Assembly (NCBI GenBank): GCA_963768175.1
Contig: CAVYGQ010000002.1
Span: forward strand, 80,284-144,283
Direction of reading: 5' to 3'
DNA: 64,000 nt
Source: Candidatus Doudnabacteria bacterium
Lineage (GTDB): Bacteria > Patescibacteriota > Doudnabacteria > UBA920
The translations under genes and the position numbers were made by a program. Below are positions 7,469 to 26,541 of this stretch, piece by piece. Every line of letters starts with the position of its first letter. Position 1 is the stretch's first letter. The notes below the pieces were generated by a model. It did not search any database and had not been told where the DNA came from. It was given only the letters and a program-made list of their open reading frames with translations.

Positions 7469-9229
7469 ATGAACGATCCCACACTTCAGGAAATCAAGGA
7501 TCGGCTAAACATCGCCGATGTGATATCAGGCTATATTCCCATAAAAAAAGCGGGCACCAATTTTAAGGCGCTTTGCCCGTTTCACCACGAGAAAACGCCT
7601 TCTTTACAAATTTCTCCGCAAAAGCAGATTTGGCACTGCTTTGGTTGCGGCGAAGGCGGAGATGTTTTTGGTTTTGTCATGAAGTATGAAAATTTGGAGT
7701 TCCGCGAAGCTTTGAAAATTTTGGCGGATAAAGCCGGGGTAAAGTTGCCGACTTACCATCCCGAAAATAAACAGCGGCAGGATGAAAAAGAATTGTTGCT
7801 AAGGATTAATGATTTTGCCGCGCGTTACTATCACGAGTTGCTGGTCGCGGACTTACGCGGAAACCAGGCCTTGCGGTATTTGGAACAACGCGGACTCACG
7901 CGGAAAACAATCGATCAATGGCAGATTGGCTTTGCGCCGGACGACTTTCATGCCCTTGAGCGGGCGCTTATGGCAAAAAAAGTAAACCTTAATGATGCTA
8001 TTAAGGCTGGGGTTATCGCAAAAAATGATCGTGGCGAGATGTATGATCGGTTCCGAGGGAGAGTGACTTTCCCCATTTATAATTATTTCGGCGATACGGT
8101 CGGGTTTTCCGCTCGTATTTTGGCTGACGATGGAAAGTCCGCTAAGTATATTAATTCTCCCGAAACACCCGTTTACAATAAGAGCAGAACTTTATTTGGT
8201 TTGAATTTTGCCAAGGAAGCAATTCGTAAAAAAGATGAAATGGTAATTGTAGAAGGGCAAATGGATTGTATTAGTTTGCACCAGTCGGGTTTTAAAAATG
8301 TGATAGCATCGAGTGGTACGGCATACAACGAAGGCGCAGTTGATTTTACCTCAGCAAGACGTTTGAATAATAATGTCAAAATGTGTTTTGATTCGGATAT
8401 AGCGGGGCAAACGGCATTGAAAAAAACCGGCGAGATGCTTTTAAAACAGGGCTTTCGGGTAAAAGTGATTATACTTAACGGGGTTAAAGACCCGGACGAA
8501 CTTATTAAAAAAAGCCCCGGGCTTTGGGAAAAAGCCGTGTCAGAGGCGGTATGGTTTTTAGACTGGCAAATGGATTTTGCCCAAAAAAAATTCGCCCAAG
8601 ATCCGGTTGAGCAAAAACATTATTTGAGTGAGCAAGTGGTGCCTTTGCTCGGCGCCATAGCCGATCCCTTGGAGCAGGACCACTACGTCCATAAACTTTC
8701 CACTAGATTTTTAATTTCCGAAAAAACCATATTAGACCAGATTAAAAAACAGGCTTTGGGTAAGAAGCCCGAATTGGACAAAGCTGGCCCCAATATTATG
8801 AACGGGAGTTTACTCTTGGAAAAGGAAATTTTGGGAGGCTTAATAGTTTTTCCGGAATTTTTGTCGGATGTTAGGGGTGGATTATTGAAAGAAGAGTTTG
8901 AGAATCCGGAGATTAGGGAGCTCATAAGCATTATTCTGGCGGGTGATAGCAAGGCTGTGGAGTTTGGAAATTCCACATTAGCCAAAGAAGCCCAGTTTAT
9001 GGTAGAATCACAGTTAGATGACTTGGGTGGTAACAGGACGGCTTTAGCTAAGGACCTGCAAAAAGCCTTTGCGATGTTAAAAATCGGGTCAATAAAAAAA
9101 CGCCAACAACAGCTTCAAAATGAAATAAAAAACGCGGAAATAGGTAAAAATAAGGCTAAAATTGAAGAATTGAACAAAGAATTCGCGCAGATTTCTGCGG
9201 AAAGAATTAAGTTCGAAGTTTTATTGTAG
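7469..9229 (+). CDS. dnaG: DNA primase
   Basis: CHC2 zinc finger [30 protein letters not shown]; TOPRIM region EGQMDCISL; 586 aa. Confidence 0.9.
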
Positions 9230-9234
9230 AAATT

Positions 9235-10545
9235 ATGGCCAAGAAGAAGCAAAATAAAAAATTTAAGAAAAAAAACGGCAAGACTGCAAAGCGGGGCATC
9301 CAAAAAAAATTCGGGGAAAAATACGTAAAAGTTTCTGTTGCCAAGCAGAGGATCCAAAAATCGGTATCAAAACCAACGCAGCCCCGTCTTAACCTGGCGA
9401 GGCAGGCGGTTTTACCGTTGCCCGTGCCAGCTTTGGATACCGAAAAGCTTTTGAAAAAGTTGATGGAAAAAGCTGCCGAACGGGGCTTTGTTACCGAAGC
9501 GGAAATTTTGCACGCTCTGCCTTATTTTGAAGACGACATACCGGGCCTTGAAAAAGTTATGGATGCTTTGGAAAAGCGCGGTATAGAAATTGTGGAGCAG
9601 GAAGTGGCCAGCGTTTGGGAGCAGAACAAGGCGCCGGAGATTAAGGCGGACGAAAAGTTAAGCAAAGGAAAAAAGAGAAAACAGGATGACATGGTGGACG
9701 CGTTTGATTTGGGCGATATTTATGACGACTCCATCCAAATGTATTTGCGCGAAATCGGCAAGGTGTCTTTACTTAAAGGGGCCGAAGAAATTGAACTTGC
9801 CAAAAGAATCGGCAAAGGCGACGTGGCCGCGCGCAGGAAATTGACCGAAGCAAACCTTCGTTTGGTGGTTTCCATTGCCAAAAAATATATGGGCCGCAAT
9901 TTAGGGCTGCTTGATTTAATTCAGGAAGGGAATTTGGGCCTGTTCCGCGCCGTAGAAAAATTTGACTGGCGCAAAGGGTACAAATTTTCCACTTACGCCA
10001 CTTGGTGGATCCGCCAAGCCATTACCAGGGCTTTAGCCGACCAATCCCGCACCATCCGGATACCCGTTCATATGGTGGAAACCTTAAATAAATATGCGCA
10101 GGCCGAACGCTCTTTGGTGCAGGATTTGGGACGCGAGCCTTTGCCCGAAGAAATTGCCGCGGAAATGGGCATTGAGGTGGAAAAAGTTTATCATCTTAAA
10201 AAGATTTCCCAGGAAACGGTGTCTATAGATTCCCCGGTAGGGGAAGACGACGGTGAAGATTCGTCACTCGGGGATTTTATTGTGGATGAAGATACGACGA
10301 AGCCAAACGAAGTCGCTGGCAGGCAAATTTTAAAGGAATATGTTGGCAATATTTTGCAGGATTTAGATCCGCGCGAACAAAAAATTCTAAAAATGCGTTT
10401 TGGCTTGGAAGACGGCGTTACCCACACCTTGGAAGAAGTGGGGGAAGAGTTCGGCGTCACCCGCGAACGCATCAGGCAAATAGAAAGCAAAGCCTTGGAG
10501 CGCATCCGGGAACATATTGATATAGATAAGCTTAGAGATTATTAG
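9235..10545 (+). CDS. rpoD: RNA polymerase sigma-70 factor
   Basis: Regions 1.2-4 present (YLREIG, region 2 [10 protein letters not shown], region 4 [20 protein letters not shown]); immediately downstream of dnaG as in the conserved operon. Confidence 0.9.
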
Positions 10546-10568
10546 GAAGAGATATTAATTGTGCAATT

Positions 10569-10600
10569 AAATCCGCCGCTAAACAGGCGGATTTATTATT
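10569..10600 (+). terminator. terminator-like hairpin after rpoD
   Basis: AAATCCGCC-loop-GGCGGATTT followed by an AT-rich run. Confidence 0.5.
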
Positions 10601-11001
10601 GCTATTATTTAAGGATGACTCCCTTCCATGTCAAAATGGCACAAAATCTTTTTTTTGTTTTAATTTTGGAGATTTTGTCAGTTATCCACTTTCTATTCTT
10701 GCCAAATTTTTGGTATAGGGGTAAAATTAAGGCAGAAAGGAAAGTAATAGATGATTAACAGGTTCTGGTTTGCCAGCTAGCTTTTCCAAAGTCGCGAAAA
10801 GCCCTCAAGGCGGCTAAGCCTTAAGCATCTAGCATTAATCTAGAGAAAAAAGAAAATCGCATATGGGAAAAGCCAGTCTGAAATAATCCCCCTTACTCCA
10901 TTTTAGGATAAGGGGGATTATTGTTTGTGTCTTGAATTAATCTCCAAAACAGTCTAAAATAAAAGCAAAACTATTATATAATACATTTCATAATCCAATA
11001 T

Positions 11002-11178
11002 ATGCCAACTCAAACCTACAACAACCGCAATATCCGCAAACTAATGAAAATGGCCGGCAAAAGCCTGGTCGTCAGCTTGCCTATTGAGTTCGTCAAGGAG
11101 CTGAAATGGAAACCCAAGCAAAAGGTGGTTATTGCTAAAAAAGGAAGGCATTTGACTATTAAGGATTGGAAAAAATAA
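11002..11178 (+). CDS. AbrB/MazE (SpoVT-AbrB swapped-hairpin) family small DNA-binding protein
   Basis: 58-aa ORF found by manual reading (below the track threshold): MPTQTYNNRNIRKLMKMAGKSLVVSLPIEFVKELKWKPKQKVVIAKKGRHLTIKDWKK; its stop overlaps the ATG of the next gene (TAATG). Confidence 0.55.
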   Translation: MPTQTYNNRNIRKLMKMAGKSLVVSLPIEFVKELKWKPKQKVVIAKKGRHLTIKDWKK

Positions 11179-13892
11179 TGCCCCTGTCCTGGAACGAAAT
11201 CAAAACCCGCGCTGTTGAATTTTCCAAAGAATGGGAAAATGAGAAGAGCGAAGATGCCGAAGCAAAGTCGTTTTGGGACGGCTTTTTTAATGTATTTGGC
11301 ATGACCCGCAGGCGTTTGGCAAGTTTTGAAGTGCCGGTCGCATTGCGCGACAAAAAGTTCGGCTATATTGACTTGTTTTGGAAGGGTATGTTAATGGTGG
11401 AGCACAAGTCCAAAGGAAAAAATTTGGACAGCGCCCTTGCCCAGGCCAAAGGTTATTTTGAAGGTATTAAGGAAGAGGATTTGCCTCGGTATATTGTTGT
11501 TTCGGACTTTGAAAGAATTAGGTTTTACGATTTGGAAACAGGCAAACATACGGAATTTGAGCTAAAAGATTTGCAAAAACATGTACAGCTGTTCGGATTC
11601 ATCGCTGGCTACCAAAAGCAGGAAATCCGCGAGCAGGATCCGGCCAACATTAAAGCCGCGGAATTAATGGCTGAACTGCACGACAGCATTTCTGAAGTCG
11701 GATATTATGGCCACCAGTTGGAAGTCTTTTTAGTCCGCATCTTGTTTTGTTTGTTTGCCGACGATACGGGAATTTTTTCCATTAAGGAACAGTTTTGGAA
11801 TTACGTAGAATGGAAATCTAAAGAGGACGGCTCGGATATGGGTTCGCTTTTGTCTATGCTTTTTCAAGTCCTAAATACCCCAAACGAAAAAAGACAGAAA
11901 ACTTTGGACGAAGAATTAACAAAATTTCCTTATGTAAACGGCGGCCTGTTTGCCGAAACCTTGCCGGTAGTCTCGTTTAACGGCGCGATGCGTAAAGCTC
12001 TTTTGGAATGTTGTAAATTTGACTGGTCAAATATCAGCCCCGCCATATTCGGCTCTATGTTCCAAGGAGTTATGGACAAAAAAGAGCGCCGGGCTTTGGG
12101 CGCGCATTACACTTCCGAAACCAATATTTTAAAGCTTATTAAGCCTTTATTTTTGGATGGACTTTGGGAAGAGTTTGAAAGCGTCAAACATAATAATCAA
12201 AAATTGCAGATTTTCCAAAAGAAAATCGCCGGTTTAAAATTTTTAGACCCTGCCTGCGGATGCGGCAATTTTTTGGTTATCGCATACCGCGAGCTACGGC
12301 TATTGGAGCTGGAAATTTTGAAGTTGCTTTATGGGCCGGGGAAAACAATCATCAAATTTAATATTCAAACAATTACCCAAGTTAGCCCGGAGCAGTTTTA
12401 TGGCATAGAAATAGGGGAGTTTGCCGGGCGCATAGCCGAAACCGCGATGTGGCTGGTGGATCACCAAATGAATCAACTGGCCAGCCAAGCTTTAGGCCAA
12501 TACTTTGTCCGCTTGCCATTAGATAAAGCGGCCCACATAAAAATTGGCAATGCTCTAACAACGGACTGGAAAGAAATAATCCAGCCTGAGGACTTAAATT
12601 ACATTTTAGGAAATCCTCCATTTATCGGTAAAAAAGAACAAACCAAGGAACAAAAAGCTGAACTGGAACTTATTTTTTCAGATGTCGAAGGCAGCAATGT
12701 GCTTGATTATGTTACATGCTGGTATCACAAAGCAGTTGAGTATATGAAAAATAATACTTTGATTCGGACAGCCTTTGTTTCGACAAATTCAATTACGCAA
12801 GGGGAACAAGTAGGTGTTTTTTGGAACTATTTATTAAAAAATAGTGTTGTGGTTCATTTTGCCCATAGGACTTTTGCATGGGGAAATGAAGCTAGGGGTA
12901 AGGCCGGCGTACATTGCGTAATAATAGGTTTTGGACTATTTGATATTAAAGATAAAAGACTTTTTGAGTACGAAAATGTAAAATCAGAACCACATGCAAC
13001 AAAAGTTTCTAACATAAATCCATATTTAGTCCCAGCTGAAAATATTTTGCTAAATCGTAGAAGTAAGCCATTGTCCCCAAAAACCGCAGAAGTCTCTTAT
13101 GGGAGTATGCCCATAGATGAGGGGCGGCTTATTTTATCAGCCGAACAGAAAGAACATTTGGTAAAAGATGAGCCAAAAGTAAAAAACTTCATTCGTCAGT
13201 ATATGGGCGGGGATGAATTTTTAAACAACATAAATCGTTATTGTTTGTGGCTAGTCGACTGCCCCCCAGAAATTTTAAGGCAAATGCCAAAGGTATTAGA
13301 ACTTGTAGAATCAAATCGTAAATATAGGGAATCAAGCGGGCGAGAAGCAACACGTCGTTTGGCAAAAAAACCAGGACTATTTGGAGAAATAAGACAACCA
13401 GAAAGCAATTATTTGCTCATTCCAAAAGTATCGTCGGAAAACAGAAATTATGTTCCTATAGGCTTTTGCACCCCTGAGATTATTGCGAGCGGAACGGCTT
13501 TAATAGTTGCTTCTGCGGGATTGTATGAGTTTGGAATTTTACAATCCTTAATGCATTTTGCTTGGATGAGTGCTGTCTGCGGAAGACTTGAGAGCCGTTT
13601 TGTTTATTCCGCTGGAATTGTTTACAACAATTTTCCATGGCCGGAAAATCCATCAGCGGACAAAGTTAAAGCTATAGAACAAGCCGCACAAAATGTTTTG
13701 GATGTTAGGTTAAAATATCCAACCAGTTCGCTTGCCGACCTATACGACCCGCTTACAATGCCTGCAGACCTTGTAAAAGCCCATCAAGATTTAGATAAAG
13801 CCGTAGATTCCGCCTATACCCGCAAAACCTTCGCCACCGACGCCGAGCGGTTGGAATTTTTGTTTGAGCTATATAAAAAATATACAAAATAA
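11166..13892 (+). CDS. MmeI-like type IIL restriction-modification enzyme (N-terminal PD-ExK nuclease fused to a gamma-class N6-adenine methyltransferase)
   Basis: About 905 aa; N-terminal IDLFWKGMLMVEHK gives D...ExK as in MmeI; methyltransferase motif I LDPACGCGNFLV and motif IV GNPPFIG; length matches the MmeI family. The real start is probably the ATG at 11178. Confidence 0.75.
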   Translation: MEKIMPLSWNEIKTRAVEFSKEWENEKSEDAEAKSFWDGFFNVFGMTRRRLASFEVPVALRDKKFGYIDLFWKGMLMVEHKSKGKNLDSALAQAKGYFEGIKEEDLPRYIVVSDFERIRFYDLETGKHTEFELKDLQKHVQLFGFIAGYQKQEIREQDPANIKAAELMAELHDSISEVGYYGHQLEVFLVRILFCLFADDTGIFSIKEQFWNYVEWKSKEDGSDMGSLLSMLFQVLNTPNEKRQKTLDEELTKFPYVNGGLFAETLPVVSFNGAMRKALLECCKFDWSNISPAIFGSMFQGVMDKKERRALGAHYTSETNILKLIKPLFLDGLWEEFESVKHNNQKLQIFQKKIAGLKFLDPACGCGNFLVIAYRELRLLELEILKLLYGPGKTIIKFNIQTITQVSPEQFYGIEIGEFAGRIAETAMWLVDHQMNQLASQALGQYFVRLPLDKAAHIKIGNALTTDWKEIIQPEDLNYILGNPPFIGKKEQTKEQKAELELIFSDVEGSNVLDYVTCWYHKAVEYMKNNTLIRTAFVSTNSITQGEQVGVFWNYLLKNSVVVHFAHRTFAWGNEARGKAGVHCVIIGFGLFDIKDKRLFEYENVKSEPHATKVSNINPYLVPAENILLNRRSKPLSPKTAEVSYGSMPIDEGRLILSAEQKEHLVKDEPKVKNFIRQYMGGDEFLNNINRYCLWLVDCPPEILRQMPKVLELVESNRKYRESSGREATRRLAKKPGLFGEIRQPESNYLLIPKVSSENRNYVPIGFCTPEIIASGTALIVASAGLYEFGILQSLMHFAWMSAVCGRLESRFVYSAGIVYNNFPWPENPSADKVKAIEQAAQNVLDVRLKYPTSSLADLYDPLTMPADLVKAHQDLDKAVDSAYTRKTFATDAERLEFLFELYKKYTK

Positions 13893-14060
13893 AAGACCGC
13901 AGCTATTTTGGCCGCGGCCCTTTTAAAGTTTTGATTTCATTTTGGATTTTTAATCTTTTATTCTCTGGTTTTTGGAGAGATTTTGTAAGCGTAAATATAG
14001 CAAGTACTATCATCTCCGCCGCCAGAACCACCCTTTACGCCTTTGTTAAGAAAGTATATC

Positions 14061-14249
14061 TCAATTTGTCTTACTATATCGGTATGTAGGGGAGTGTTCC
14101 AGTATATATTTGGTATAGTTTGGTCGAACTCCATGGCCGTTAATTAGTCTATCGTTTGGGTCGGCTGCTATGCCAATATAGAACTCCGAGTAGTATTGGC
14201 CATTTTTACCCATAAAGCTTTCAAAAGCTTCAATTATTGCTTGGCTCAT
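14061..14249 (-). CDS. small ORF, possibly a frameshifted remnant with a GIY-YIG-like half motif
   Basis: FYIGIAADPNDRLINGH resembles the YIG..R..H half of the GIY-YIG motif. A second overlapping frame (14134..13958) continues, so a frameshift is possible. Confidence 0.25.
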   Translation of the reverse strand: MSQAIIEAFESFMGKNGQYYSEFYIGIAADPNDRLINGHGVRPNYTKYILEHSPTYRYSKTN

Positions 14250-14283
14250 ATTGTTAAAGAACTGTTAATTATTAAGATTTATT

Positions 14284-14439
14284 TTACTTGCCGCGAGCCA
14301 TGAAATCTACTTCAACTTCTTCTTTTATCTTTTTGTGGGCATCAAAGCTCACCGGCTCGCCGTCTTTGGTCCTGAAAGCGACAGTAACAGGTTCTTTAAC
14401 GGCCTTTTCAGCCATAAACTTCACATGATGTTTATGCAT
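14284..14439 (-). CDS. small hypothetical protein (51 aa)
   Basis: Manual ORF MHKHHVKFMAEKAVKEPVTVAFRTKDGEPVSFDAHKKIKEEVEVDFMARGK; no recognisable homology. Confidence 0.25.
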   Translation of the reverse strand: MHKHHVKFMAEKAVKEPVTVAFRTKDGEPVSFDAHKKIKEEVEVDFMARGK

Positions 14440-14593
14440 GGTTTTTTGCTCCTTTCTTAGCAATATTAATAATAAAATTTTGGTTTCGGTCTTTTACGGC
14501 CTCCGCCATATTTATAATTATAAGCGAAATTCTGAAATCCGTCAAGTATTAAGGAGTTATTGCATTTATAAATTAAATATGTTAGCATAAAGT

Positions 14594-15253
14594 ATGCACA
14601 AAATCCAAGAAAAGCTGCTTGAGCTGTCAAAAACTGAAAATTTGGCTAAATTAAGTCTTAGGGATATGGCAAAAGCCATCGGCATGCCTTTAGAATCGCC
14701 TCAAAAAATTAAGCACCATTTATTGCAATTGCAAAAAAAGGGCTTTTTATCTATTGATAGAGCCAAGGGTGTTATGGAAAAGGCGGCATCTACCCCTGGT
14801 TGGGCAAAGGGACTACTTGAAAAATCTGCCAAGCTTTTTTCCATTCCCATTATTGGGATGGCGAACTGCGGGCCGGCAGAAATTTTTGCGGAACAAAATT
14901 TTCAGGGATTTTTAAAAGTTTCCAGTAAATTAATTCACAAATCCAAGCCGGATGGTCTTTATGCAATAAAAACAGACGGCTCGTCTATGAATAGGGCGAT
15001 TATTGGCGACAAAAGTTTAGAGGATGGTGATTATGCCATTGTTGATAGTAAAGATAGAAGCGTCGAGACTAATGATGTCGTTTTGGCAATCATAGACAAC
15101 AAAGCCACGATTAAACGATTTATAGACGATAAGAAAAATGGACAAGTGGTTTTAAAGGCCGACTTTTCATTTGACTACGAGCCAATTTATTTGCACCCCG
15201 ATGACGAATTTTTTATTAATGGCAAAGTTGTTGGGGTAATTAAAAACGGCTAA
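14594..15253 (+). CDS. LexA-like repressor (wHTH + S24 peptidase)
   Basis: 219 aa; N-terminal winged-helix region, linker IPIIGMANCGPAEI, peptidase motifs GSSM and KRF. Confidence 0.8.
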   Translation: MHKIQEKLLELSKTENLAKLSLRDMAKAIGMPLESPQKIKHHLLQLQKKGFLSIDRAKGVMEKAASTPGWAKGLLEKSAKLFSIPIIGMANCGPAEIFAEQNFQGFLKVSSKLIHKSKPDGLYAIKTDGSSMNRAIIGDKSLEDGDYAIVDSKDRSVETNDVVLAIIDNKATIKRFIDDKKNGQVVLKADFSFDYEPIYLHPDDEFFINGKVVGVIKNG

Positions 15254-15261
15254 GAATATTT

Positions 15262-16104
15262 ATGGAAAACAAAATAAGCCAAAAATCTTTAGTATCGTTT
15301 ATTGACGCAAGCGGGACGTTGGGCCCGAATGACAGGTATTTTGGAGTTGGTATGCTTACTGTTGAGTTACCAGGGCCCCTTACTGACAAATTACATCCGG
15401 TTTTCCAAAGAGTTATGGCAATTTCTCAAGCAAACCGAAATCAAGCAATAGAGGCACTTATAAAGGCTGACAGAAAAGACGAAGTTATTACTATGCTCAA
15501 ACAAAGCAAGCGTTTTGAACTGAAATTTGACCGCGTTACCCCAGTAAAATTTGAGCAATACAAAGAAATGATCAGGATTTTTTTAAATTATCCGGGAAAT
15601 CGTTTTGTGACCATGGTTGTAGACCGGCAACATCCCAGTTACGACAAAAACCATTTTAGTTCCACTTGGGAAGCTTATACCAGTTATGTAGCAGTTTTAG
15701 TCGCAAACGAGTTATCCCATCTTCCGAACAAGGAGATGTTTGTGGTATTGGATGAGCTTCCTAAACCTAAAATTATCTTGCAAAGTTTAGAAGAAGTGAT
15801 AATGCAAAAAGTTGATAAGCGATGTGGGGAAAAATATCCCAATGTAAAAATTTGTGAGTTTAAAAATGCAATTAGAATTGAAAGCCATTCTAACTTGCTA
15901 ATGCAACTTTGCGATGTCCTTTTGGGAGCGGTAACGTTTGACTACAAGCAGTCTTCGGGGAAACTTTCTGACAAGCTGCAGAATAGGAAGGAAGAGGTTG
16001 TAAAAATTTTGAGGCAAGGTTTAGCCCAGCCTCGGCTTGATAAGCCATTTAAAGTAGAAACGCCTGTTTACTTTCAAATATGGCATCCGGCATGGCACAA
16101 ATAA
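15262..16104 (+). CDS. DUF3800-like protein
   Basis: 280 aa; N-terminal FIDASG (the DES-type motif of that family) and C-terminal QLCD (the QxxD motif), as I recall them for DUF3800; starts 9 nt after the LexA-like gene. Confidence 0.45.
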   Translation: MENKISQKSLVSFIDASGTLGPNDRYFGVGMLTVELPGPLTDKLHPVFQRVMAISQANRNQAIEALIKADRKDEVITMLKQSKRFELKFDRVTPVKFEQYKEMIRIFLNYPGNRFVTMVVDRQHPSYDKNHFSSTWEAYTSYVAVLVANELSHLPNKEMFVVLDELPKPKIILQSLEEVIMQKVDKRCGEKYPNVKICEFKNAIRIESHSNLLMQLCDVLLGAVTFDYKQSSGKLSDKLQNRKEEVVKILRQGLAQPRLDKPFKVETPVYFQIWHPAWHK

Positions 16105-16144
16105 AAAAAGGGGAGAGCGACAAGTAACCGCGTCCCCTTTACTT
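16105..16144 (+). terminator. terminator-like hairpin
   Basis: AAAGGGGAG ... TCCCCTTT stem with a following T run. Confidence 0.5.
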
Positions 16145-16173
16145 TAAATAAATTTTGAAATCCGGTAGGCCTA

Positions 16174-16845
16174 ATGCCTACATACATAGTGTATAATGTT
16201 CGTTCACCTTTGTCAAGCGCACTAAATTATAAATTGTCCACAAGGCTTAAAACCATGTCCGAAGAAGATAGCCAAAATTTATCCGCAGATATGCCAACTA
16301 ATCCGCTTTCGGAGCCGGTTGATTCAGCTTCTGCGGAAATTCCCGTTACATCTCCATCTGATGATAATGTAAAGCCGGCGGGCGATGCCGCTGATTTGCC
16401 AGCCGATGGCGCGCCTGTAACAATACCAACAAGCCAAGACGGCGCTGCGGTTGAGCCCGCGCCTTTGAATAATAATCAGCCTGATGCAGGCAGTGAGCCG
16501 GCAAGCCTTCCGACCCAGCCTTCAGTAGGGCAAACTTCCCAGCCTACAGCTCCTCAAACTTCACCGGCTTCTTTCGTCGCCTCGCGGTTTGCGGAAGGAA
16601 TGCACAACTGGAAACAGCATTTGCTGGAAGCGCTGGCAAAAAAACAGCAGCGCAAGCAGGAAGAGCAAATTCAGGTTTTGGCTTTGGCCGAAAAGCACAA
16701 CGGCAGCGTTACTAATAAACAAGTTCAAACAGCCTTGCGTTGCACCGAGCTTACCGCTTACAGGTATTTATCGTCTTTGGAAAAGCAAGGCAAGCTTAAA
16801 AGAGTTGGCGGACACAACACGCCGAAGTATGAATTGGTAAAGTAA
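16174..16845 (+). CDS. hypothetical protein with a Pro/Asp-rich N-terminal region and a C-terminal winged-helix DNA-binding domain
   Basis: C-terminal LALAEKHNGSVTNKQVQTALRCTELTAYRYLSSLEKQGKLKRV; the probable true start is the internal Met at about 16255. Confidence 0.45.
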   Translation: MPTYIVYNVRSPLSSALNYKLSTRLKTMSEEDSQNLSADMPTNPLSEPVDSASAEIPVTSPSDDNVKPAGDAADLPADGAPVTIPTSQDGAAVEPAPLNNNQPDAGSEPASLPTQPSVGQTSQPTAPQTSPASFVASRFAEGMHNWKQHLLEALAKKQQRKQEEQIQVLALAEKHNGSVTNKQVQTALRCTELTAYRYLSSLEKQGKLKRVGGHNTPKYELVK

Positions 16846-16867
16846 GGTTATATAATCTATTCTATAA

Positions 16868-16918
16868 TAAAACCGCCTCTTACCCGCTAGTTGGCGGATT
16901 ACTCGGGGGCGGTTTTAT
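16868..16918. terminator. bidirectional terminator-like hairpins between convergent genes
   Basis: AAAACCGCC ... GGCGGTTTT palindrome. Confidence 0.4.
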
Positions 16919-16936
16919 AAATATTGGGCTTGAGTT

Positions 16937-17878
16937 TTAAAAGAATTTGTAACCAATCATCTTATAAACCAGTTTGGCGGCCAGAAAATCAGGATGATGC
17001 AAATTTTTGACGGGAGCAAGCTCCACCACATCCGCGCCCAAGACAGTTTTGGATTTATAGACGGCTTTTAAGATTTCCAAGGTCGGCCACCACAGCAGGC
17101 CGCCGGGTTCGGGAGTGCCGGTGGACGGCATTATGGAAGGGTCAAACGCGTCCAGGTCAAAACTGATAAAAACATTGCGGGTAGGGATGGCGCGGACCAC
17201 GTCAACCGGAGAAAATTTGTCCCAAGCCCAAAAAGTTTTTATTTTGTCGCGATATTTTTTGCGGAAAGCCATTTCGCCGTTTTGGTCGCTGAGGCTGCGG
17301 ACGCCGACCTGTACCAATTTGGCAACGGGATACTTTGACAAGACCTGGCTCATTACCGCGCCGTGGCTGTAGGCCGAGCCGATGTAGTAATCAAGCCGCG
17401 TATCCGAATGTGCGTCAAAATGCAGGACCGTAAAGTTTTTGTATTTTCTGCATAGGCCTTTAACCGTGCCTTGGGTTAAGGAATGCTCCCCGCCCAAAAC
17501 CACCGGAAATTTTTTATCGGCAACAACCTTGCTAACATGCTTTGCCAAGAGTTCAATTGCGGGTTTTTGTTGTTTTGGGATCCTTGGCTCTTTAAGCGTG
17601 GCAATGCCGCAGCGGAAAAAAGGTTTTAATGCCCGCTCGTCCAAAATTTCCATATAGTGGCTGGCGTCAATAATTGCCTTGGGCCCGTTTTTTGTGCCAC
17701 GGCCGTAAGAAACCGTATTTTCCAGGCCAAAAGGAATAACCGCCGCCTTGGCTTTGCCGTAGGGGACTTGGAAACCTTTTCCCTGGTTTATTCCCAAAAA
17801 GCCATTTTTCATTGTTGAAAATTTCATAAATGGTTGTTGCTTATTGCATTGAAAATTTATCAAGGTTAATCTCGGCAT
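16937..17878 (-). CDS. arginase/agmatinase family ureohydrolase
   Basis: FDAHSDTR and [10 protein letters not shown] metal-binding motifs, GGEHS; the true start is probably the internal Met near 17827. Confidence 0.85.
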
Positions 17879-18518
17879 AACTTTTGGCTATCTGGTCCGC
17901 GTCCTTTAGCAATGCCGCGTCGTGAGTGGTGGTTAAGGCAATGCATTTCATGCCCGCATTTTTGGCAGCCATTACCCCGTTGACCGCGTCTTCTATTACC
18001 AAACAATTTTCCGGCGCCTCGCCTAGTTGCCGGGCGGCGTGCAAAAAAATATCTGGCGCGGGTTTGGAAACGTTGTTTACGTCTTTTAAGAAATACACGT
18101 GTCCGCCGAATAGGTCAGTTAAATGCAGCTGGCCGTCGGCAATCCGGAATAATTCCAAAACCGAAGAAGTGGCAATGGCCGTTTTATAGCGGTTCTTAAT
18201 GCCGGCAAAAAAATCCAAAAATCCCGGAACAAAAGCTACCTCGCGGTAATATTTTTTAATTACGGCTAGGCGCCCATCGGCCAGCTCCGCGGTTTTGCCG
18301 CCAAAGCCGTAAAGTTTCTGCATTACCTTAATGCCTTGGTCCAGCGGCTTGCCGGTAAGCAAATGGCGGTATTTTTCCGGCTCGTCCGTGACGCCGTGCT
18401 TGGAAAAAAATTCGCGGTCGCCCTGTTCGTAAAGCGGTTCGGTGTTTATAACTACGCCGTCGGCATCAAAAATAACGGCTTTAAATGGGCGATATTTATC
18501 GGTTATTTTATTAACCAT
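17841..18518 (-). CDS. HAD-IA family hydrolase (beta-phosphoglucomutase-like)
   Basis: [15 protein letters not shown] (DxDG motif I); 225 aa. Confidence 0.8.
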
Positions 18519-18592
18519 ACCTTATTTTAGCAGAAAGCTCGGATTTATGCTATAATTAAAATAGATAGATTTTTTCTTAAATTTTACATTGA

Positions 18593-19693
18593 ATGTTAGC
18601 AGAAATTAGAGACAGTATTATAGGCTGGCTTTATCGCAGTATTTTAAAGCCGGTTTTCTTTTTGTTTGACCCCGAAAGAATCCATGACCGGATGATTTTG
18701 ACGGGTAAAATTTTAGGCAGTAATCCCATAACCCGCGGGTTAACGGGCTTGATGTTTGGCTACCAAAATCCGATGCTGGAGCAGAATCTTGCGGGGATAA
18801 AGTTTAAAAATCCGGTCGGGCTGGCCGCGGGATTTGACAAGGAGGCGCATATAGGGGCAATTTTGCCCGGCGTGGGCTTTGGTTTTGAAGAAGCCGGCTC
18901 GATTACCGCCCTGCCGTTTGAAGGCAACCCGCGTCCGTGGATGTGGCGGCTGCCCGAATATAAGGCATTAAGGGTTAACTATGGCTTAAAGAGTTCCGGC
19001 GCGCCGAATGTCCATAAATTTCTTTTGGGGAAGAAGTTTGATTTTGCCTTGGGCCTCAGCCTGGCCAAAACCAACTCCAAGGCCACGTCCGAGGTGCCGG
19101 CGGGCATTGAGGACTATTTTATCAGCTATAAAATATTTCAGGACATTGGCGATTATTTTACCATTAACATCAGCTGTCCCAATACTTGCGAGGCCAGCCC
19201 GATTTTTGCCCAGCCCGAAAATTTTGATTTGCTTTTAGCCAAGCTTTTTTCCATTTCCAAAAGCAAGCCGGTGTTTGTGAAGCTGTCGCCCGATTTGGAG
19301 GAGGGCCAGCTAACGGGAATTTTGGAAATCGGGAATAAGTATCCGCTGGATGGTTTTATTTGCACCAATTTAACCAAGAATAACGTTTTTAACCATGAAG
19401 GCAATGGCGGGTTTTCCGGTAAGGCCGTGGAGGAGCTGTCCAATCAAATGTTATCAAAGGTTTACAGGTTTTACGGCGGCAAAAAAATTATTATCGGCTG
19501 CGGCGGAGTATTTTCCGCCGAGGATGCCTACAAAAAAATCAAGCTGGGAGCCTCCCTTATTCAATTAATTACCGGAATGATTTACGAGGGTCCGCAGTTA
19601 ATAGGCGAAATTAACAGGGGTTTAGTAAAACTTCTCAAAAAGGACGGTTATAAAAACATTTCCGAAGCGGTTGGTGTGGACATAAAGGCGTAG
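18593..19693 (+). CDS. pyrD: dihydroorotate dehydrogenase (quinone type, family 2)
   Basis: NPVGLAAGFDKEAH, NISCPNT and GCGGVFSAEDAYKKI motifs. Confidence 0.85.
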   Translation: MLAEIRDSIIGWLYRSILKPVFFLFDPERIHDRMILTGKILGSNPITRGLTGLMFGYQNPMLEQNLAGIKFKNPVGLAAGFDKEAHIGAILPGVGFGFEEAGSITALPFEGNPRPWMWRLPEYKALRVNYGLKSSGAPNVHKFLLGKKFDFALGLSLAKTNSKATSEVPAGIEDYFISYKIFQDIGDYFTINISCPNTCEASPIFAQPENFDLLLAKLFSISKSKPVFVKLSPDLEEGQLTGILEIGNKYPLDGFICTNLTKNNVFNHEGNGGFSGKAVEELSNQMLSKVYRFYGGKKIIIGCGGVFSAEDAYKKIKLGASLIQLITGMIYEGPQLIGEINRGLVKLLKKDGYKNISEAVGVDIKA

Positions 19694-19712
19694 TCGTGTT
19701 ATTATTGACAAC

Positions 19713-20516
19713 ATGGAAAATATTATTGAAGTAAAAAATTTGAGTAAGAAATTCGGTGACTTTGTTGCCGTAAATAATATTTCTTTTGAGGTTAAAAAAG
19801 GGGAAATTTTTGCTTTTTTAGGGCCAAACGGCGCGGGGAAGTCCACGACCATAAAAATGCTTACCACTTTGCTTAATCTCACTTCCGGCAGCATAGAGTT
19901 AAACGGTCATAACCCCGTAAAAAATTCCAATGCGGTGCGACATTCGTTTGGCATTGTTTTTCAGGACCCCAGCCTGGATGATGAATTAACGGCCTGGGAA
20001 AACATGGAATTTCACGGCGTGCTTTACGGCGTGGAGAAAAGCTTGCGCCGCAAGAGAATCCAGGAACTAATGAATTTTGTCGAACTTTGGGACAGAAAGG
20101 ACAGCTTGGTTAAAGAGTTTTCCGGCGGCATGAAGCGCCGTTTGGAAATCGCGCGCGGCCTTTTGCACCATCCTAAGGTTTTATTTTTGGATGAGCCGAC
20201 TTTGGGGTTGGATCCTCAAACCCGCAACCACATGTGGACGTATTTGCAGGAGCTGAACAAAAGCGAAGGCATTACCGTATTTTTTACCACGCATTATATG
20301 GAAGAGGCCAGCCGCATTGCCCAGCGCATTGCCATTATTGACCACGGGAAAATTATTGCTACCGGCTCTTCCGAGCAGCTGCAGCAGCAGACCCAGACCG
20401 ATTCTTTGGAAGACGCGTTTTTAAAGCTTACGGGCGACGTGATCCGCGACCAGGATGCCAGCGCCACCGACCGGCTGCGGACGCGCAGGCAGCAGCGGGG
20501 CGGAAATAGGAGATAA
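19713..20516 (+). CDS. ABC transporter ATP-binding protein
   Basis: Walker A GPNGAGKST, signature FSGGMKRRLEIA, Walker B LFLDEPTLGLDP. Confidence 0.9.
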   Translation: MENIIEVKNLSKKFGDFVAVNNISFEVKKGEIFAFLGPNGAGKSTTIKMLTTLLNLTSGSIELNGHNPVKNSNAVRHSFGIVFQDPSLDDELTAWENMEFHGVLYGVEKSLRRKRIQELMNFVELWDRKDSLVKEFSGGMKRRLEIARGLLHHPKVLFLDEPTLGLDPQTRNHMWTYLQELNKSEGITVFFTTHYMEEASRIAQRIAIIDHGKIIATGSSEQLQQQTQTDSLEDAFLKLTGDVIRDQDASATDRLRTRRQQRGGNRR

Positions 20517-20524
20517 AATTCGAA

Positions 20525-20665
20525 ATCCAAATATCGAAATTCGAAACAATATCTAAATTATAAATTAGAAATTCAAAATCTAGGGTTTAGAACATTTAAA
20601 TTTAGATATTGGAATTTGTTTCGTATTTAGTGCTTCGAATTTCGAATTTGATAATTATTTAGTTT
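20525..20665. repeat. AT-rich imperfect palindrome between the ABC ATPase and permease genes
   Basis: CGAAATTCGAAACAATATCTAAATT ... AAATTTAGATATTGGAATTTGTTTCG...TTCGAATTTCGAATTT; about 140 bp with symmetric arms. Confidence 0.4.
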
Positions 20666-20671
20666 TTACTT

Positions 20672-21418
20672 ATGAAGACTATATATATAATGTGGCTTAG
20701 GGAACTTAAGCGCTATTTGCGCTCCCGCTCCAGAATTATAGGCTCGTTGGGGCAGCCGCTGCTTTTTTTGCTGGCTTTGGGCTACGGCCTTGGCGCAACT
20801 TTCCAAAAAGCCGGGGAGGGCAACTATATTAATTTTTTGGCTCCCGGAATTATCGGCATGACCATTATTTTTACTTCCATTTTTTCCGGCATCCAGGTTA
20901 TTTGGGACCGCCAGTTCGGGTTTTTAAAGGAAACCATGGTCGCGCCGGTCTCGCGCTTTAATATTATGATAGGGCGGACTTTGGGCGGGGCAACCATAGC
21001 GACTATCCAGGGGGTCATAGTTTTTTGTCTGGCCTTAATTCCCGGCTTTCGCCCCTATAATTGGGCGCTGGTTTTTCCCGCTATTGTCGTAATGCTTTTG
21101 GTGGGAACCATGTTTACGGCTTTGGGCACGGCCATTGCTTCCCAGCTGGAAGACATGCAGGGTTTCCAGCTGATTATGAATTTTTTGGTCATGCCGCTGT
21201 TCTTTTTGTCCGGCGCGCTGTTTCCGCTTTCGGGCCTGCCGGCGGTTTTAATTGTGATTACCAAGTTTGACCCGCTGTCTTACGGCATAGACGCTTTTAG
21301 GGTGTTGCTTTCCAATTCCGGACATTTTAGTTTAGGCCTTGATATTTCCGTTTTGGCCGTGATTACTCTAATTTTCTTGTCCGTCGGAAGTTATTTGTTT
21401 TCCAAGATACAGATATAG
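20672..21418 (+). CDS. ABC-2 type transporter permease
   Basis: 248 aa; six hydrophobic segments; directly follows the ABC ATPase. Confidence 0.8.
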   Translation: MKTIYIMWLRELKRYLRSRSRIIGSLGQPLLFLLALGYGLGATFQKAGEGNYINFLAPGIIGMTIIFTSIFSGIQVIWDRQFGFLKETMVAPVSRFNIMIGRTLGGATIATIQGVIVFCLALIPGFRPYNWALVFPAIVVMLLVGTMFTALGTAIASQLEDMQGFQLIMNFLVMPLFFLSGALFPLSGLPAVLIVITKFDPLSYGIDAFRVLLSNSGHFSLGLDISVLAVITLIFLSVGSYLFSKIQI

Positions 21419-21506
21419 ATCACAGATACACAGATGAAAACTGATGGCACAGATATAAAACACAAAGCATTCCGAATTACACGGGATGCTTTTTTATTTC
21501 AGGTTT

Positions 21507-21640
21507 ATGTGGCGGTTGCTTGAGGACAGCCCTCTGGCATCAAAACTATGATGTTATAAAAACAATTAATGAATGCTGCGCGATCATCTTTTGAAAGCCG
21601 GATTTGGGCCAGAGGACTGTCCTCAAGCGCGTGACCTTAG
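21507..21640. repeat. long hairpin element with arms TTGAGGACAGCCCTCTGGC / GCCAGAGGACTGTCCTCAAGC
   Basis: About 20-bp inverted arms around a ~67-nt loop; the same arm sequence recurs at 29258-29330. Confidence 0.5.
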
Positions 21641-21689
21641 CCGTACTAAAAAGTTGGAAATTTATCGTTTAAATTGTTATGATTAATGT

Positions 21690-23039
21690 ATGGGAAAGGG
21701 AAAAAAGTTTTATGCGGTTTTAGTCATTGCCGCTTACTTAAGCGCGGGCTTTTATGCGGCGCCGATTTTCGCGCAGGTTTCCGGTAGTTCTTCGGACTCC
21801 GCGGCGGTACAGCAGCAGCTTCAGCAGCAGCTTCAGCAGATAGAAAATCAAATCCAGGGGCTGCAGCAGCAGTTGGCGCAGACGCAGGCGCAAAAAAACA
21901 CTTTGGCCAATAAAATTAAGCAGCTAAAAAAGCAGCAGGCGCTTTTGAATTTGCAGATTCAGGCCACAAACTTGCAGGTCAGCCAGCTGGGCGACCAAAT
22001 TACGGCCACCCAAAATTCCATAACGCAAAACAATGCCCAAGTCCAGAATCTGCAAAACCAGATTGCCGGCGTAATCCAGGCCATAAACCAAAATGACAAT
22101 TACCCGTTTATATATACCGCGCTTAGCCAGCAAAGACTTTCCGATGTTTTTACGGTTTACCAAGACTACGCTCAAGTTTCCCAAGGTTTGAGCTCGCTTA
22201 TAGACCAGCTCAATTCGGCCAATACCCAGCTTGCCCAGCAGCAGCAGGCTTTAGCCGACCAGCAGCAGGGGGCGCAAAATTTACTGTCTATAAAAATTTT
22301 GCAGCAAAATCAGCTGACGGGAAGCGTTAATGACCAAAACATTTTGCTTTCGCAGACCAAAGGCAGGGAGGCGGACTATCAGGCAACCCTTAGTGATACG
22401 CAGGCGCAGGCTGTTGCCATCCGCAGCCGTTTGTATCAGTTGCTCGGCGTATCAACCCAAATTACTTTTGGCCAGGCGGTGCAAATTGCCCAGTGGACAA
22501 AAGGCTCTACCGGTATTGACCCGGCTTTTTTGCTGGCGATTTTAACCCAGGAATCCAATCTTGGGCAGAATGTCGGTACTTGCAACCGGCCCGGGGATCC
22601 GCCAAGTAAAAGTTATAAAGTTGTGATGAATTCCACGCGGGACATTCCGCCGTTTTTGCAAATTACCCAAAGCCTTGGGATGGATCCGGATATTACTCCC
22701 GTGTCGTGCCCCATGAAAGATTCCAAAGGAAACCAAATCGGCTGGGGCGGGGCCATGGGACCGGCGCAGTTCATTCCTTCCACCTGGGTCGGCTATAAAG
22801 ACAAGGTTGCTCAGCTGACCGGCCACAGCCCTGCTAACCCGTGGGACATCCGCGACGCTTTCGCCGCCGCCGCCATAAAACTGACTTCCAATGGGGCCGA
22901 CGGGACTTATCAGGGGGAGTGGAACGCGGCCATGCGCTATTTTTCCGGTTCCACGAATTCCAAGTATAGCTTTTATGGAGACAGTGTTATGCAGACAACG
23001 GCCAAGTATCAGAGCGACATCAGCGCTTTATCCAAGTGA
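21690..23039 (+). CDS. secreted coiled-coil protein with a C-terminal lytic transglycosylase-like domain
   Basis: Signal/TM N-terminus, Gln-rich heptad region, C-terminal LTQESNLGQN ... AMGPAQFIPSTW. Confidence 0.65.
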   Translation: MGKGKKFYAVLVIAAYLSAGFYAAPIFAQVSGSSSDSAAVQQQLQQQLQQIENQIQGLQQQLAQTQAQKNTLANKIKQLKKQQALLNLQIQATNLQVSQLGDQITATQNSITQNNAQVQNLQNQIAGVIQAINQNDNYPFIYTALSQQRLSDVFTVYQDYAQVSQGLSSLIDQLNSANTQLAQQQQALADQQQGAQNLLSIKILQQNQLTGSVNDQNILLSQTKGREADYQATLSDTQAQAVAIRSRLYQLLGVSTQITFGQAVQIAQWTKGSTGIDPAFLLAILTQESNLGQNVGTCNRPGDPPSKSYKVVMNSTRDIPPFLQITQSLGMDPDITPVSCPMKDSKGNQIGWGGAMGPAQFIPSTWVGYKDKVAQLTGHSPANPWDIRDAFAAAAIKLTSNGADGTYQGEWNAAMRYFSGSTNSKYSFYGDSVMQTTAKYQSDISALSK

Positions 23040-23046
23040 GCATGGT

Positions 23047-23085
23047 AAAACAGGGGACACCTCTTCCAGAGGTGTCCCCTGTTTT
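23047..23085. terminator. bidirectional terminator (perfect 18-bp stem)
   Basis: AAAACAGGGGACACCTCT-TCC-AGAGGTGTCCCCTGTTTT between convergent genes. Confidence 0.65.
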
Positions 23086-23094
23086 GGTGATAAA

Positions 23095-24198
23095 TTAGCG
23101 TTGTTTTATGCGGACCCAAACATGCTGCCACCACAGTGAGGCGTGGTCAAAGTAAGGGTGCGAACTTGGCACGTATTGCCAAAGAGCCCAGGCCGCTATC
23201 GCAATAAAGGCCAGCCAGGTCAAAGATCCAAAAAATCCGTGGTGATGGCAGCAGGGCTTTTGGCCTTCTTGGTAAGCGTGCCACCTTGCGGCTTTAATCG
23301 GCCACAGCACAAAGCTTAAGATGCAAAACCAAGCCAGTATGGCAATCCAAAGCGGAATGGAAGCCGGCAGAAGTAACCCAAAAACCATGCCGTGTTTTAT
23401 TATACTAACCAGGCCAAAAAGCCAAATTATTGAAAGTATCGTAATCAGTAATCCCAAAAAAGGCGTGGGAAAGCGGTGATGGTTTTCGGCATAATATTGG
23501 GCTTTGGCCGCCCATTTTTCCTGCCTCATTCTTTCCCTGGTCTGATGGCGATTTTCCCTGGCTTCTTTTCGCCACTTCCTGAATTCACTTCTCCATTTAT
23601 TTCTTTCGTCTTTATCGGAAAATCTAGCATACTCTTCTTTGGCGCGGTTAACCAGATCCTGGGCGGTAAAGGGTTGGCCGAAAGCAGCGGCAAATTCCGC
23701 CGGATTTTTGGCTGACGGCAGGACTATTGCCATAATAATATAAACCACAATCCCGATGCCGTGTGTTATTAAAACCAACAAAACGAACGCGAGCCTGACC
23801 AACGTGACATCCATATTAAAGTAAGCGGCCAATCCCGTGCACACGCCGCTTATCATTGCGCCTTCGCGGATTTTATATAATTTTTTAACAGTCGAAGAGG
23901 TTTTTGGCGCTTCCTGGTTTTGACTACCGGCTGGTTCATCCGTGGTAGCCTGCACCGGACCCATTTCCTTTATAACTTCTTCAACTTCTTTTTCTACAAC
24001 CACTGTCTTACCCGAATTTAAAAACCTGCCGAACTTTTCGCCCAAAGACTGCTCCAAATCGGAAATTATTTCGGTCTTGTCGGGATCTTGGGCAAGTTTT
24101 GTTTCGGCTTCATCCAAATACGCGCGCAGTTTGTTGTAGCCCGGCTCTTCCAGCTGGAAGGCCCGCCCGTGCAAATGTATGGTAATTACTTTGTTCAT
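23095..24198 (-). CDS. PspC domain-containing membrane protein
   Basis: GAMISGVCTGLAAYFNMDVTLVRLAFVLLVL PspC motif; C-terminal membrane domain. Confidence 0.75.
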   Translation of the reverse strand: MNKVITIHLHGRAFQLEEPGYNKLRAYLDEAETKLAQDPDKTEIISDLEQSLGEKFGRFLNSGKTVVVEKEVEEVIKEMGPVQATTDEPAGSQNQEAPKTSSTVKKLYKIREGAMISGVCTGLAAYFNMDVTLVRLAFVLLVLITHGIGIVVYIIMAIVLPSAKNPAEFAAAFGQPFTAQDLVNRAKEEYARFSDKDERNKWRSEFRKWRKEARENRHQTRERMRQEKWAAKAQYYAENHHRFPTPFLGLLITILSIIWLFGLVSIIKHGMVFGLLLPASIPLWIAILAWFCILSFVLWPIKAARWHAYQEGQKPCCHHHGFFGSLTWLAFIAIAAWALWQYVPSSHPYFDHASLWWQHVWVRIKQR

Positions 24199-24551: not shown

Positions 24552-24644
24552 ATCATAAAAATGTAGTCAAGTATTAATTCCGTTAGCTATGTGGATATTA
24601 AAAAACCTCTTATAAATATAAGAAATTTTTCTATCTAAACTGGC

Positions 24645-26479: not shown

Positions 26480-26541
26480 AAGAACTATAAAAAGCACCCC
26501 GGTAAATATAGAGGCGCTTTTTAAATGCTTAATGAGGTTTC

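Follow-up and report, generated by a model that had tools for sequence, protein, structure and literature searches.

A possible damage-responsive operon of a LexA-like repressor and a DUF3800 protein in a Candidatus Doudnabacteria genome

What does a LexA-like repressor control when the gene directly behind it encodes a protein of the DUF3800 family? The question is raised by a stretch of 64,000 nucleotides (nt) from a Candidatus Doudnabacteria bacterium (assembly GCA_963768175.1, contig CAVYGQ010000002.1, positions 80,284 to 144,283), referred to here as the window and numbered from its first letter. An initial annotation had placed three open reading frames (ORFs) on its forward strand, at 14594-15253 (219 residues), 15262-16104 (280 residues) and 16174-16845 (223 residues). 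All three were found at these coordinates, and the spacer between the first two, given before as 9 nt, was found to be 8 nt long (15254-15261). The assignment of a LexA-type helix-turn-helix (HTH) and an S24 peptidase to the first protein and of DUF3800 to the second was right for both, as judged by Pfam. The two genes had been proposed to form a damage- or phage-inducible module or, alternatively, to be the host lexA with an unrelated neighbour. The reading that we favour, with a confidence falling a little short of even, is that they would form a bicistronic operon with a LexA-like repressor of the Candidate Phyla Radiation (CPR, or Patescibacteria) at its head and a predicted DUF3800 nuclease in an exchangeable cargo position, derepressed upon DNA damage.

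The 219-residue protein (14594-15253, forward strand) combines an N-terminal winged HTH with a self-cleaving peptidase domain of the S24 type, as seen with Pfam, with TIGR00498 and in the alignment to E. coli LexA. Peptidase_S24 (PF00717) was matched with E=3.1e-18. The match to LexA_DNA_bind (PF01726) reached 23.5 bits, just under the gathering score of 23.7, and the same call is precomputed for several orthologs. With TIGR00498, the LexA equivalog model of NCBIfam, the protein scored 83.9 bits, under the curated cutoff of 110.95. It could be aligned to structures of E. coli LexA, with the catalytic residues present as Ser131 and Lys174, which we take to be the counterparts of Ser119 and Lys156 of the E. 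coli protein. The predicted scissile bond, Cys92-Gly93, lies opposite the Ala-Gly of the E. coli sequence VAAG; UmuD is likewise cut at Cys-Gly. Among 26 aligned family members, G93, S131 and K174 were invariant and C92 was kept in at least 90%, and in the predicted recognition helix, SPQKIKHHLxQL, residues Q37, K40, H41, H42, Q45 and L46 were invariant. Because the Ser/Lys dyad and the Cys-Gly site are conserved, the protein looks competent for self-cleavage. Its family counts more than 1500 homologs and more than 120 clusters at about 75% identity (at least 73%). The few clusters that bear an organism name come from CPR lineages, and the LexA-like gene is single-copy per contig. Metagenome-assembled genomes are the source of the closest relatives of both the LexA-like and the DUF3800 protein; where these relatives have a name, it is Saccharibacteria, Levybacteria, Paceibacterota, Liptonbacteria, Nomurabacteria or similar. 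By its sequence, the 219-residue protein is a member of a separate, strongly conserved LexA-like family of the CPR and not the canonical LexA.

A canonical LexA does exist in the same window. When another lexA was looked for, it was found about 10 kb upstream, at 4677-6239 on the forward strand, as a protein of 520 residues that begins with canonical LexA (residues 1 to about 200) and continues in frame into an N6/N4 DNA methyltransferase. This ORF scored 190 bits with TIGR00498, against the cutoff of 110.95, and matched LexA_DNA_bind (4e-16), S24 (8e-30) and N6_N4_Mtase (PF01555, 4e-52). Its closest relatives are canonical LexA proteins of about 210 residues from CPR lineages, and the identity between it and the LexA-like family is about 28-33%. 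The fusion recurs, since 18 of the 120 best LexA matches also carry PF01555; those with a name are again from the CPR. The alternative of a plain host lexA with an unrelated neighbour is weakened by this second gene, by the TIGR00498 score of the 219-residue protein below the cutoff, and by the position directly downstream of the LexA-like gene, which is repeatedly filled by defence-type genes (see below). The second restriction-modification (RM) system that had been noted in the neighbourhood was located at 4677-6906, where a 226-residue ORF without a family match (6226-6906, reverse strand) lies convergent to the LexA-methyltransferase gene and is presumably its restriction enzyme partner. 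A methylase covalently tied to a self-cleaving repressor would be an unusual route for RM regulation. About 60 nt upstream of the fusion gene (4608-4616) stands a perfect DnaA-box-like 9-mer, TGTGGATAA, which occurs three times in the window (also at 33302-33310 on the reverse strand and at 50981-50989) where 0.4 copies are expected.

The 280-residue protein (15262-16104, forward strand) is a stand-alone DUF3800 protein. It matched PF12686 with 25.1 bits against a cutoff of 21 (E=3.3e-5, positions 3-147 of the 149 of the hidden Markov model), and the same call is precomputed for 11 of its 24 closest homologs (P0001-P0024). Two short motifs had been put forward for this family. The C-terminal QxxD is present as QLCD at residues 215-218, with Q215 and D218 invariant in the 24 homologs. 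At the N-terminus FIDASG is present (residues 13-18), and its proposed likeness to DES failed, the residues being D15-A16-S17 with no Glu; more distant members of the subfamily have D-S-S in place of D-A-S, and the Glu is missing subfamily-wide. A "DE" motif has been described for the N-terminal part of DUF3800 (PMC7736814). The conserved acidic and His residues are D15, E86, D164, E207, H209 and D218, of which E86, D164, E207 and H209 join D218 in being invariant or nearly so. An AlphaFold2 model built on the 24 homologs was confident (predicted local distance difference test 91, predicted template modelling score 0.89), and RNase HII, H2 and HIII were its closest structural matches. The protein is accordingly modelled with an RNase H-like fold, carrying a helical insertion of about 75 residues, in agreement with published descriptions in which the DUF3800 fold is RNase H2-like and its active site rearranged (PMC7736814, PMC10910872). 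Among defence models it matched PADLOC PDC-M04A (1.5e-13), and among phage families phrog_3732, which is of unknown function (3e-10). The subfamily is small: 41 DUF3800 proteins were found in a search of 5.8 billion sequences, a profile search of 1.84 billion representatives gave 527 clusters at 50% identity (E<=1e-3), and the single viral match was distant, with 28% identity.

No terminator was seen between the two genes. A terminator-like hairpin with a U-rich stretch (16107-16140, forward strand) follows 3 nt past the DUF3800 stop codon, with a folding energy of -16.7 kcal/mol (z=-2.85 against shuffled sequences); it was missed by a consensus terminator scan because its loop exceeds 8 nt, and it likely marks the end of a two-gene transcript. 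With 8 nt between them, no terminator at the junction and a hairpin behind DUF3800, the LexA-like and DUF3800 genes are probably co-transcribed. The predicted promoter of the pair (14560-14588, forward strand) consists of a -35 hexamer TTGCAT at 14560-14565, a spacer of 17 nt and a TG-extended -10 hexamer TAGCAT at 14583-14588. The ATG of the LexA-like gene follows 5 nt after the -10 element, a distance that is 5-9 nt in nearly all orthologs, and no Shine-Dalgarno sequence precedes it, which makes a leaderless mRNA probable. A recognisable Shine-Dalgarno sequence is missing from all three genes (LexA-like, DUF3800, 223-residue protein).

At the nucleotide level the promoters of the orthologs follow the pattern TGTCAAGTATTAAGGA(G/C)TTATTGC(A/T)TTT, about 12 nt, TG(T/C)TA(G)(C/G)AT, about 5-9 nt, ATG. 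The loci compared in this work, numbered with an L, are metagenomic fragments that were retrieved with peptide patterns of close relatives; duplicates among them were merged by eye, and ORFs were called by a simple longest-ORF script. Two elements of the region could serve a repressor. One is an AT-only palindrome, ATTTATAAAT, in the promoter spacer (14564-14573). The other is the conserved, non-palindromic element GTCAAGTATTAAGGA (14541-14555), which lies between two divergent -35 hexamers. In 14 loci, with the promoters aligned by eye, its core 13-mer TCAAGTWTTAAGG was found a single time per locus and invariably some 40-65 nt ahead of the start codon of the LexA-like gene. The window holds no other close copy of GTCAAGTATTAAGGA; the nearest ones, with 3 mismatches, are at chance level, and the two best of these looked like ordinary -35/UP sequence. 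The 70 matches to the 15-mer in IMG/VR were judged near chance for the size of the database. We regard GTCAAGTATTAAGGA as the best candidate operator of the LexA-like protein. The second of the divergent promoters (14517-14545, reverse strand) is sigma-70-like, with TTGACG, 17 nt and TATAAT (11 of 12 matches), and faces one or more small minus-strand ORFs; a TTGACA-type hexamer is kept at this position in orthologous loci. In promoters of more distant LexA-like orthologs (45-51% identity; L030, L035, L036, L038, L040, L041, L046, L048, L052-L054) it is a DnaA-box-like sequence, TGTGGA(A/T)AA, that is conserved upstream of the gene instead; it might represent either a DnaA box or an operator for one of the LexA types.

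Is the pair itself conserved? The co-occurrence of the two genes had been proposed as a check, and its outcome counts against the reading of the pair as a module: the LexA-like and DUF3800 genes stand together in 2 of 11 DUF3800 contexts and in 2 of 26 LexA-like contexts, namely in the window and in contigs of P0001, a homolog with 91% identity whose spacer is 2 nt. The pair was absent from the 9 other DUF3800 contexts and the 24 other LexA-like contexts, tblastn with the LexA-like protein found nothing in the other DUF3800 loci, and none of 39 further LexA-like loci held a DUF3800 relative or the third gene. Because the pair is absent from these contexts, the idea of a dedicated LexA-like/DUF3800 pair falls. 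It survives in a modified form, as a conserved repressor with an exchangeable effector, with which the anatomy of the operon is consistent.

Downstream of the LexA-like gene a co-directional ORF starts at -4 to +14 nt from the stop codon in 10 or 11 of the 15 distinct contexts with at least 67% identity. What this ORF encodes differs from locus to locus: DUF3800 in the window and with P0001, a 159-residue unknown protein in L017, a metallo-beta-lactamase (MBL) fold protein in L018 (PADLOC PDC-M48B 4e-81, LmuA 4e-31, and RTasMBL), a trypsin-like protease in L019/51 (PADLOC retron RT-Protease_XI, 3.7e-10), RmuC in L020, a 373-residue Zn-ribbon protein in L024/32, a small ORF in L025, an HNH protein in L027, an overlapping ORF in L030, and in L058 (4679-6218) a RelA_SpoT protein (PADLOC PDC-S33, 2.6e-19) at a spacer of 3 nt, followed by a 236-residue partner. 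Distant orthologs have in this slot type II methyltransferases at 19-30 nt, a type IIG-like methyltransferase at 3 nt or a membrane protein at -4 nt. Most slot genes, including the type II methyltransferases, matched PADLOC models. In L056 (4693-7582) the LexA-like ortholog is followed by a trio of genes for a 121-residue protein, a DUF4238 protein, which also had a PADLOC match, and a 492-residue protein. With the same architecture of the promoter, the slot genes of L058 and L056 are candidate defence genes of the toxSAS-like and DUF4238 types. From the LexA-like stop to the start of the slot gene the junctions share no sequence, and being unrelated they gave no sign of a site-specific cassette-exchange site. 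An ABC transporter beside the slot gene of L017 was considered as extended synteny and rejected, as it is not orthologous to that of the window (30% identity). In about 12 of roughly 20 distinct LexA-like loci, an RM gene lies at most one or two genes away. The recurrent feature is this architecture, a conserved repressor and a variable effector in an RM-rich island, and not the pairing with DUF3800, which on this reading is recent and opportunistic.

Seen from the side of DUF3800, the relatives sit in defence islands, with type I RM, TIR, Nhi/AbiO-like and reverse transcriptase contexts. Three independent contigs (L003 6001-6879, L004, L005) have P0019 inside a type I RM operon, flanked by hsdS and hsdR; this relative is 53% identical and overlaps the hsdS stop codon by 4 nt. 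Others stand beside a TIR protein (L009), an Nhi/AbiO-like protein (L012) or an XRE-type HTH gene (L013), behind an unknown 118-residue gene (P0002), or alone beside housekeeping genes (P0022, L010, L011). In L014 (4931-6288) a 350-residue reverse transcriptase (PADLOC RT, 2e-49) overlaps by 4 nt an internally deleted DUF3800 fragment of 102 residues, which may be a decayed unit of reverse transcriptase and DUF3800, retron type VII-like, in a CPR genome.

Put together as a mechanism, the favoured reading would work as follows. A dimer of the LexA-like protein would bind its own promoter at the conserved block 14541-14560 or at the AT palindrome and keep the operon and the divergent transcript low. 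Upon DNA damage or phage replication, RecA filaments on single-stranded DNA would induce self-cleavage at Cys92-Gly93 by Ser131 and Lys174. Derepression would then yield more of the presumably co-transcribed DUF3800 nuclease, and this enzyme, going by its fold and by the company that its relatives keep, might cut RNA/DNA hybrids or other nucleic acid of the invader or the host and act as a defence or abortive-infection effector. A wider form of the proposal extends this to the CPR as a whole: a LexA paralog beside canonical LexA would sense activated RecA (RecA*) or DNA damage and gate a swappable one-gene effector slot (RNase H-like DUF3800, MBL nuclease, trypsin-like protease, RelA/SpoT-type synthetase, HNH, RM methyltransferases), always in RM-rich islands. 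In that general form we consider it rather doubtful.

Several observations besides the poor co-occurrence of the pair weigh against this mechanism. The search for a LexA-box-like palindrome upstream of the LexA-like gene found no palindromic LexA box: the Gram-positive type of box, GAAC-N4-GTTC, is as frequent in the window as chance predicts and is missing from the LexA-like promoter, CTGT-N8-ACAG was not seen in that promoter by eye, and the window holds no recA or uvr genes with which an operator could be compared. An AAGT-N7-ACTT palindrome in the conserved block was dropped, as its right arm is not conserved among orthologs. Since it is asymmetric and overlaps promoter hexamers, the conserved element at 14541-14555 could be no more than a part of the promoters. 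In the DUF3800 subfamily the Glu of the DE(S) motif is missing, and no recognisable Shine-Dalgarno sequence precedes the DUF3800 start codon. The loci are a small sample, biased towards close relatives, and the PADLOC "PDC" models stand for predicted candidates only. In some loci the LexA-like gene is monocistronic, followed by a terminator and then by mscL (L037-39) or a DEAD-box helicase (L049/50), and in L025 its divergent neighbour is recA. Such housekeeping neighbours fit a general chromosomal regulator.

They bring us to the alternative that survives best, which is fortuitous adjacency: the LexA-like protein would be an ordinary chromosomal stress regulator with its own regulon, lying in an integration hotspot or defence island, and DUF3800 a mobile single gene with no selected link to it beyond possible read-through. 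The non-conservation of the pair favours this explanation, as do the core-gene-like behaviour of the LexA-like family (very conserved, single-copy per contig), the recA, mscL and helicase neighbours, the latter two beside distant orthologs, and the GC content, which dips slightly over 13-16 kb (0.38-0.39, with flanks at 0.43-0.48). Random insertion, however, would not be expected to give co-directional junctions of -4 to +14 nt without an intervening terminator in 10 or 11 of the 15 close contexts; the junctions differ in sequence, so that they cannot be put down to one insertion site; and a canonical LexA is already present in the same window. We consider adjacency by chance unlikely, while granting it real weight.

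A controller function for the RM genes nearby is improbable. In that case the LexA-like protein would act in the manner of a C protein on adjacent RM genes and tie restriction or methylation to DNA damage, with DUF3800 as an accessory of the RM island. The neighbourhood is indeed rich in defence genes, as the initial annotation had it. The MmeI-like enzyme noted there was confirmed at 11166-13892 (forward strand) as an MmeI-family type IIG RM enzyme with all five MmeI Pfam domains (MmeI_N, hel, Mtase, TRD and C; PADLOC REase_MTase_IIG, 1199 bits), and three contigs, the window's and those of P0001 and L023, preserve the order MmeI, small gene, LexA-like gene. In most LexA-like loci RM components lie at most one or two genes away, be it MmeI, another type IIG enzyme, C5 or N6 methyltransferases or Vsr; the canonical LexA of the window and its 18 counterparts are fused to a methyltransferase, and a DUF3800 relative is embedded in a type I RM operon. 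Yet a strong bidirectional terminator (13891-13923) follows the upstream, co-directional MmeI gene, which excludes co-transcription with the LexA-like gene, the conserved promoter element has no copy near the MmeI start, and several LexA-like loci have no RM gene nearby.

We give equally little credence to a role of DUF3800 in repair, as an RNase H-type nuclease of a damage regulon that removes R-loops or ribonucleotides after damage instead of acting as a defence effector. Its closest structural matches are RNases of the H type, it sits in a predicted operon with a LexA-type repressor, and the recombination-associated RmuC takes the same slot in L020. Against this, DUF3800 is sporadic, with 41 close homologs compared to more than 1500 for the repressor and with 527 clusters among the 1.84 billion representatives; its relatives occur in RM, TIR and reverse transcriptase contexts; the other slot genes are of protease, alarmone-synthetase and HNH types; and at least one genome with a DUF3800 relative (L006) has a separate housekeeping RNase HII. 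A prophage repressor of the CI type was rejected, as IMG/VR held no relative of the LexA-like protein among its viral contigs and no phage structural or integrase genes were found among the neighbours in the window and in the related loci examined.

Between MmeI and the LexA-like gene, what had been called a possible nuclease remnant (13960-14249, reverse strand) is a remnant: three-frame translation against an intact gene in L027 (2773-3060, reverse strand) identified it as a frameshifted copy of a protein of about 95 residues (YIGI..D...RL..H ... GGxGGGD...YAYK). The intact gene of L027 stands upstream of the LexA-like gene, and GIY-YIG-like small genes occupy the divergent position in L020, L054 and L058. 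In the window a 59-residue ORF without a family match (14284-14463, reverse strand) lies divergent to the LexA-like gene; in orthologous loci the gene at this position may be DUF2188, DUF1508, GIY-YIG-like, Vsr, HNH or recA. Downstream of the divergent promoter, at about 14420-14495 on the reverse strand, a stretch ATGGCGGAGG(C/A)...AAAC is conserved and is found also in L017, L018 and L023. It could encode a leader peptide of about 22-25 residues (MAEAVKDRNQ... / MAEEKRQKQK...) or be a small RNA before the variable minus-strand gene. On the other side, the third ORF (16174-16845, forward strand) encodes a 223-residue protein with a low-complexity N-terminus. The winged helix proposed for its C-terminus was matched weakly, by HTH_69 (E=0.0025) and by the C-terminus of PADLOC SoFic (7.9e-5). 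This gene lies beyond the hairpin at 16107-16140, is missing from the P0001 contig, where pilus genes stand instead, and had no tblastn match in any fetched locus; it is a neighbour and not part of the unit.

Functionally, the unit appears closest to a LexA-headed SOS operon, and its logic resembles that of modular defence regulators. Among canonical SOS operons, lexA shares its transcript with a following gene in, for example, lexA-dinF of E. coli and the lexA2-imuA-imuB-dnaE2 cassettes. Shared with these are an HTH and S24 repressor with its Ser/Lys dyad at the head of the operon, where autoregulation would make downstream genes damage-inducible. Unlike canonical LexA, the LexA-like protein stays below the equivalog cutoff (83.9 against 110.95), shares about 30% identity, has a Cys-Gly site and comes with no identified palindromic box, and the gene behind it varies by genome and is defence-like, not one of repair or translesion synthesis. 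BrxR/CapW repressors with a WYL domain and CapH-CapP of CBASS are regulators found beside many defence systems and thought to derepress on damage or infection. Here too, one conserved regulator gene adjoins many different defence-type genes, but it belongs to the LexA-type winged HTH and S24 family, comes first in the same operon, was seen here in the CPR only, and its regulation is predicted. Nuclease toxins under LexA control are known from colicin operons and from BapE of Caulobacter. As with these toxins, an SOS-type repressor would govern the expression of a nuclease in the unit of the window. The toxins are under canonical LexA, which acts in trans via a defined SOS box, whereas here the nuclease would be encoded within the operon of the repressor itself, and that repressor is a paralog.

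Non-canonical S24 regulators of the SOS response (HdiR, UmuDAb, the non-canonical LexA of Bacteroidetes) are distinct from canonical LexA and govern small sets of damage-responsive genes, so that paralogy with a diverged binding motif is a known theme (PMC8565304). Such regulators as a rule stand in for an absent LexA and act on recA or on translesion polymerases, whereas in the window a canonical LexA co-exists and the genes neighbouring the LexA-like family are nucleases, proteases and methyltransferases. DUF3800 effectors have been described in retron type VII and, as TPR-DUF3800, beside Cas12a2 and Cas12a3 (PMC7736814, PMC10910872, PMC13594972). The 280-residue protein belongs to the same Pfam family, would share the RNase H2-like fold with a rearranged catalytic site, and has relatives in comparable defence and mobile-element settings; it differs in standing alone, in its helical insertion, in having D-A-S in place of DE or DES, and in keeping QxxD, which is missing in the retron type. 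Unlike in those systems, no reverse transcriptase, msr/msd RNA, TPR domain or CRISPR array lies nearby. A retron of type VII was ruled out, as 9000-27000 contains no reverse-transcriptase ORF and cmscan gave no match to any Rfam family in 9000-20000 (E<=1), DUF3800 RNA motifs included. The structured RNA motifs DUF3800-I to -XI accompany a DUF3800 gene of unknown function in many genomes (PMC5737381); here, in place of such an RNA, the partner is a protein-coding repressor gene. PDC-M04 of PADLOC is a predicted multi-gene candidate system, of which subunit A was matched by the DUF3800 protein, while the LexA-like, winged-HTH and MmeI proteins matched no PDC-M04 model.

We found no description in the literature of a CPR LexA paralog with an exchangeable effector slot; the family itself may have been described earlier, as work on the SOS network of Patescibacteria was not covered. 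To our knowledge, DUF3800 is a widespread RNase H-like family without a known function. It recurs beside retrons, Cas12a2/a3 loci and eleven unrelated RNA motifs. Its place in the operon of a self-cleaving repressor offers, for one member, a concrete candidate trigger, DNA damage or RecA*. The wider form of the proposal, if true, would amount to a new class of SOS-gated defence or abortive-infection cassettes and provide the first defined trigger for DUF3800. The conserved LexA paralog with its variable defence-type gene, together with the fusions of canonical LexA to a methyltransferase, suggests that the tiny-genome, largely uncultured CPR bacteria couple immunity and RM to a sensor of the SOS type. 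Should this be confirmed, the catalogue of defence systems would gain a regulatory logic, and the LexA-like gene would become a bait for new effectors in CPR metagenomes.

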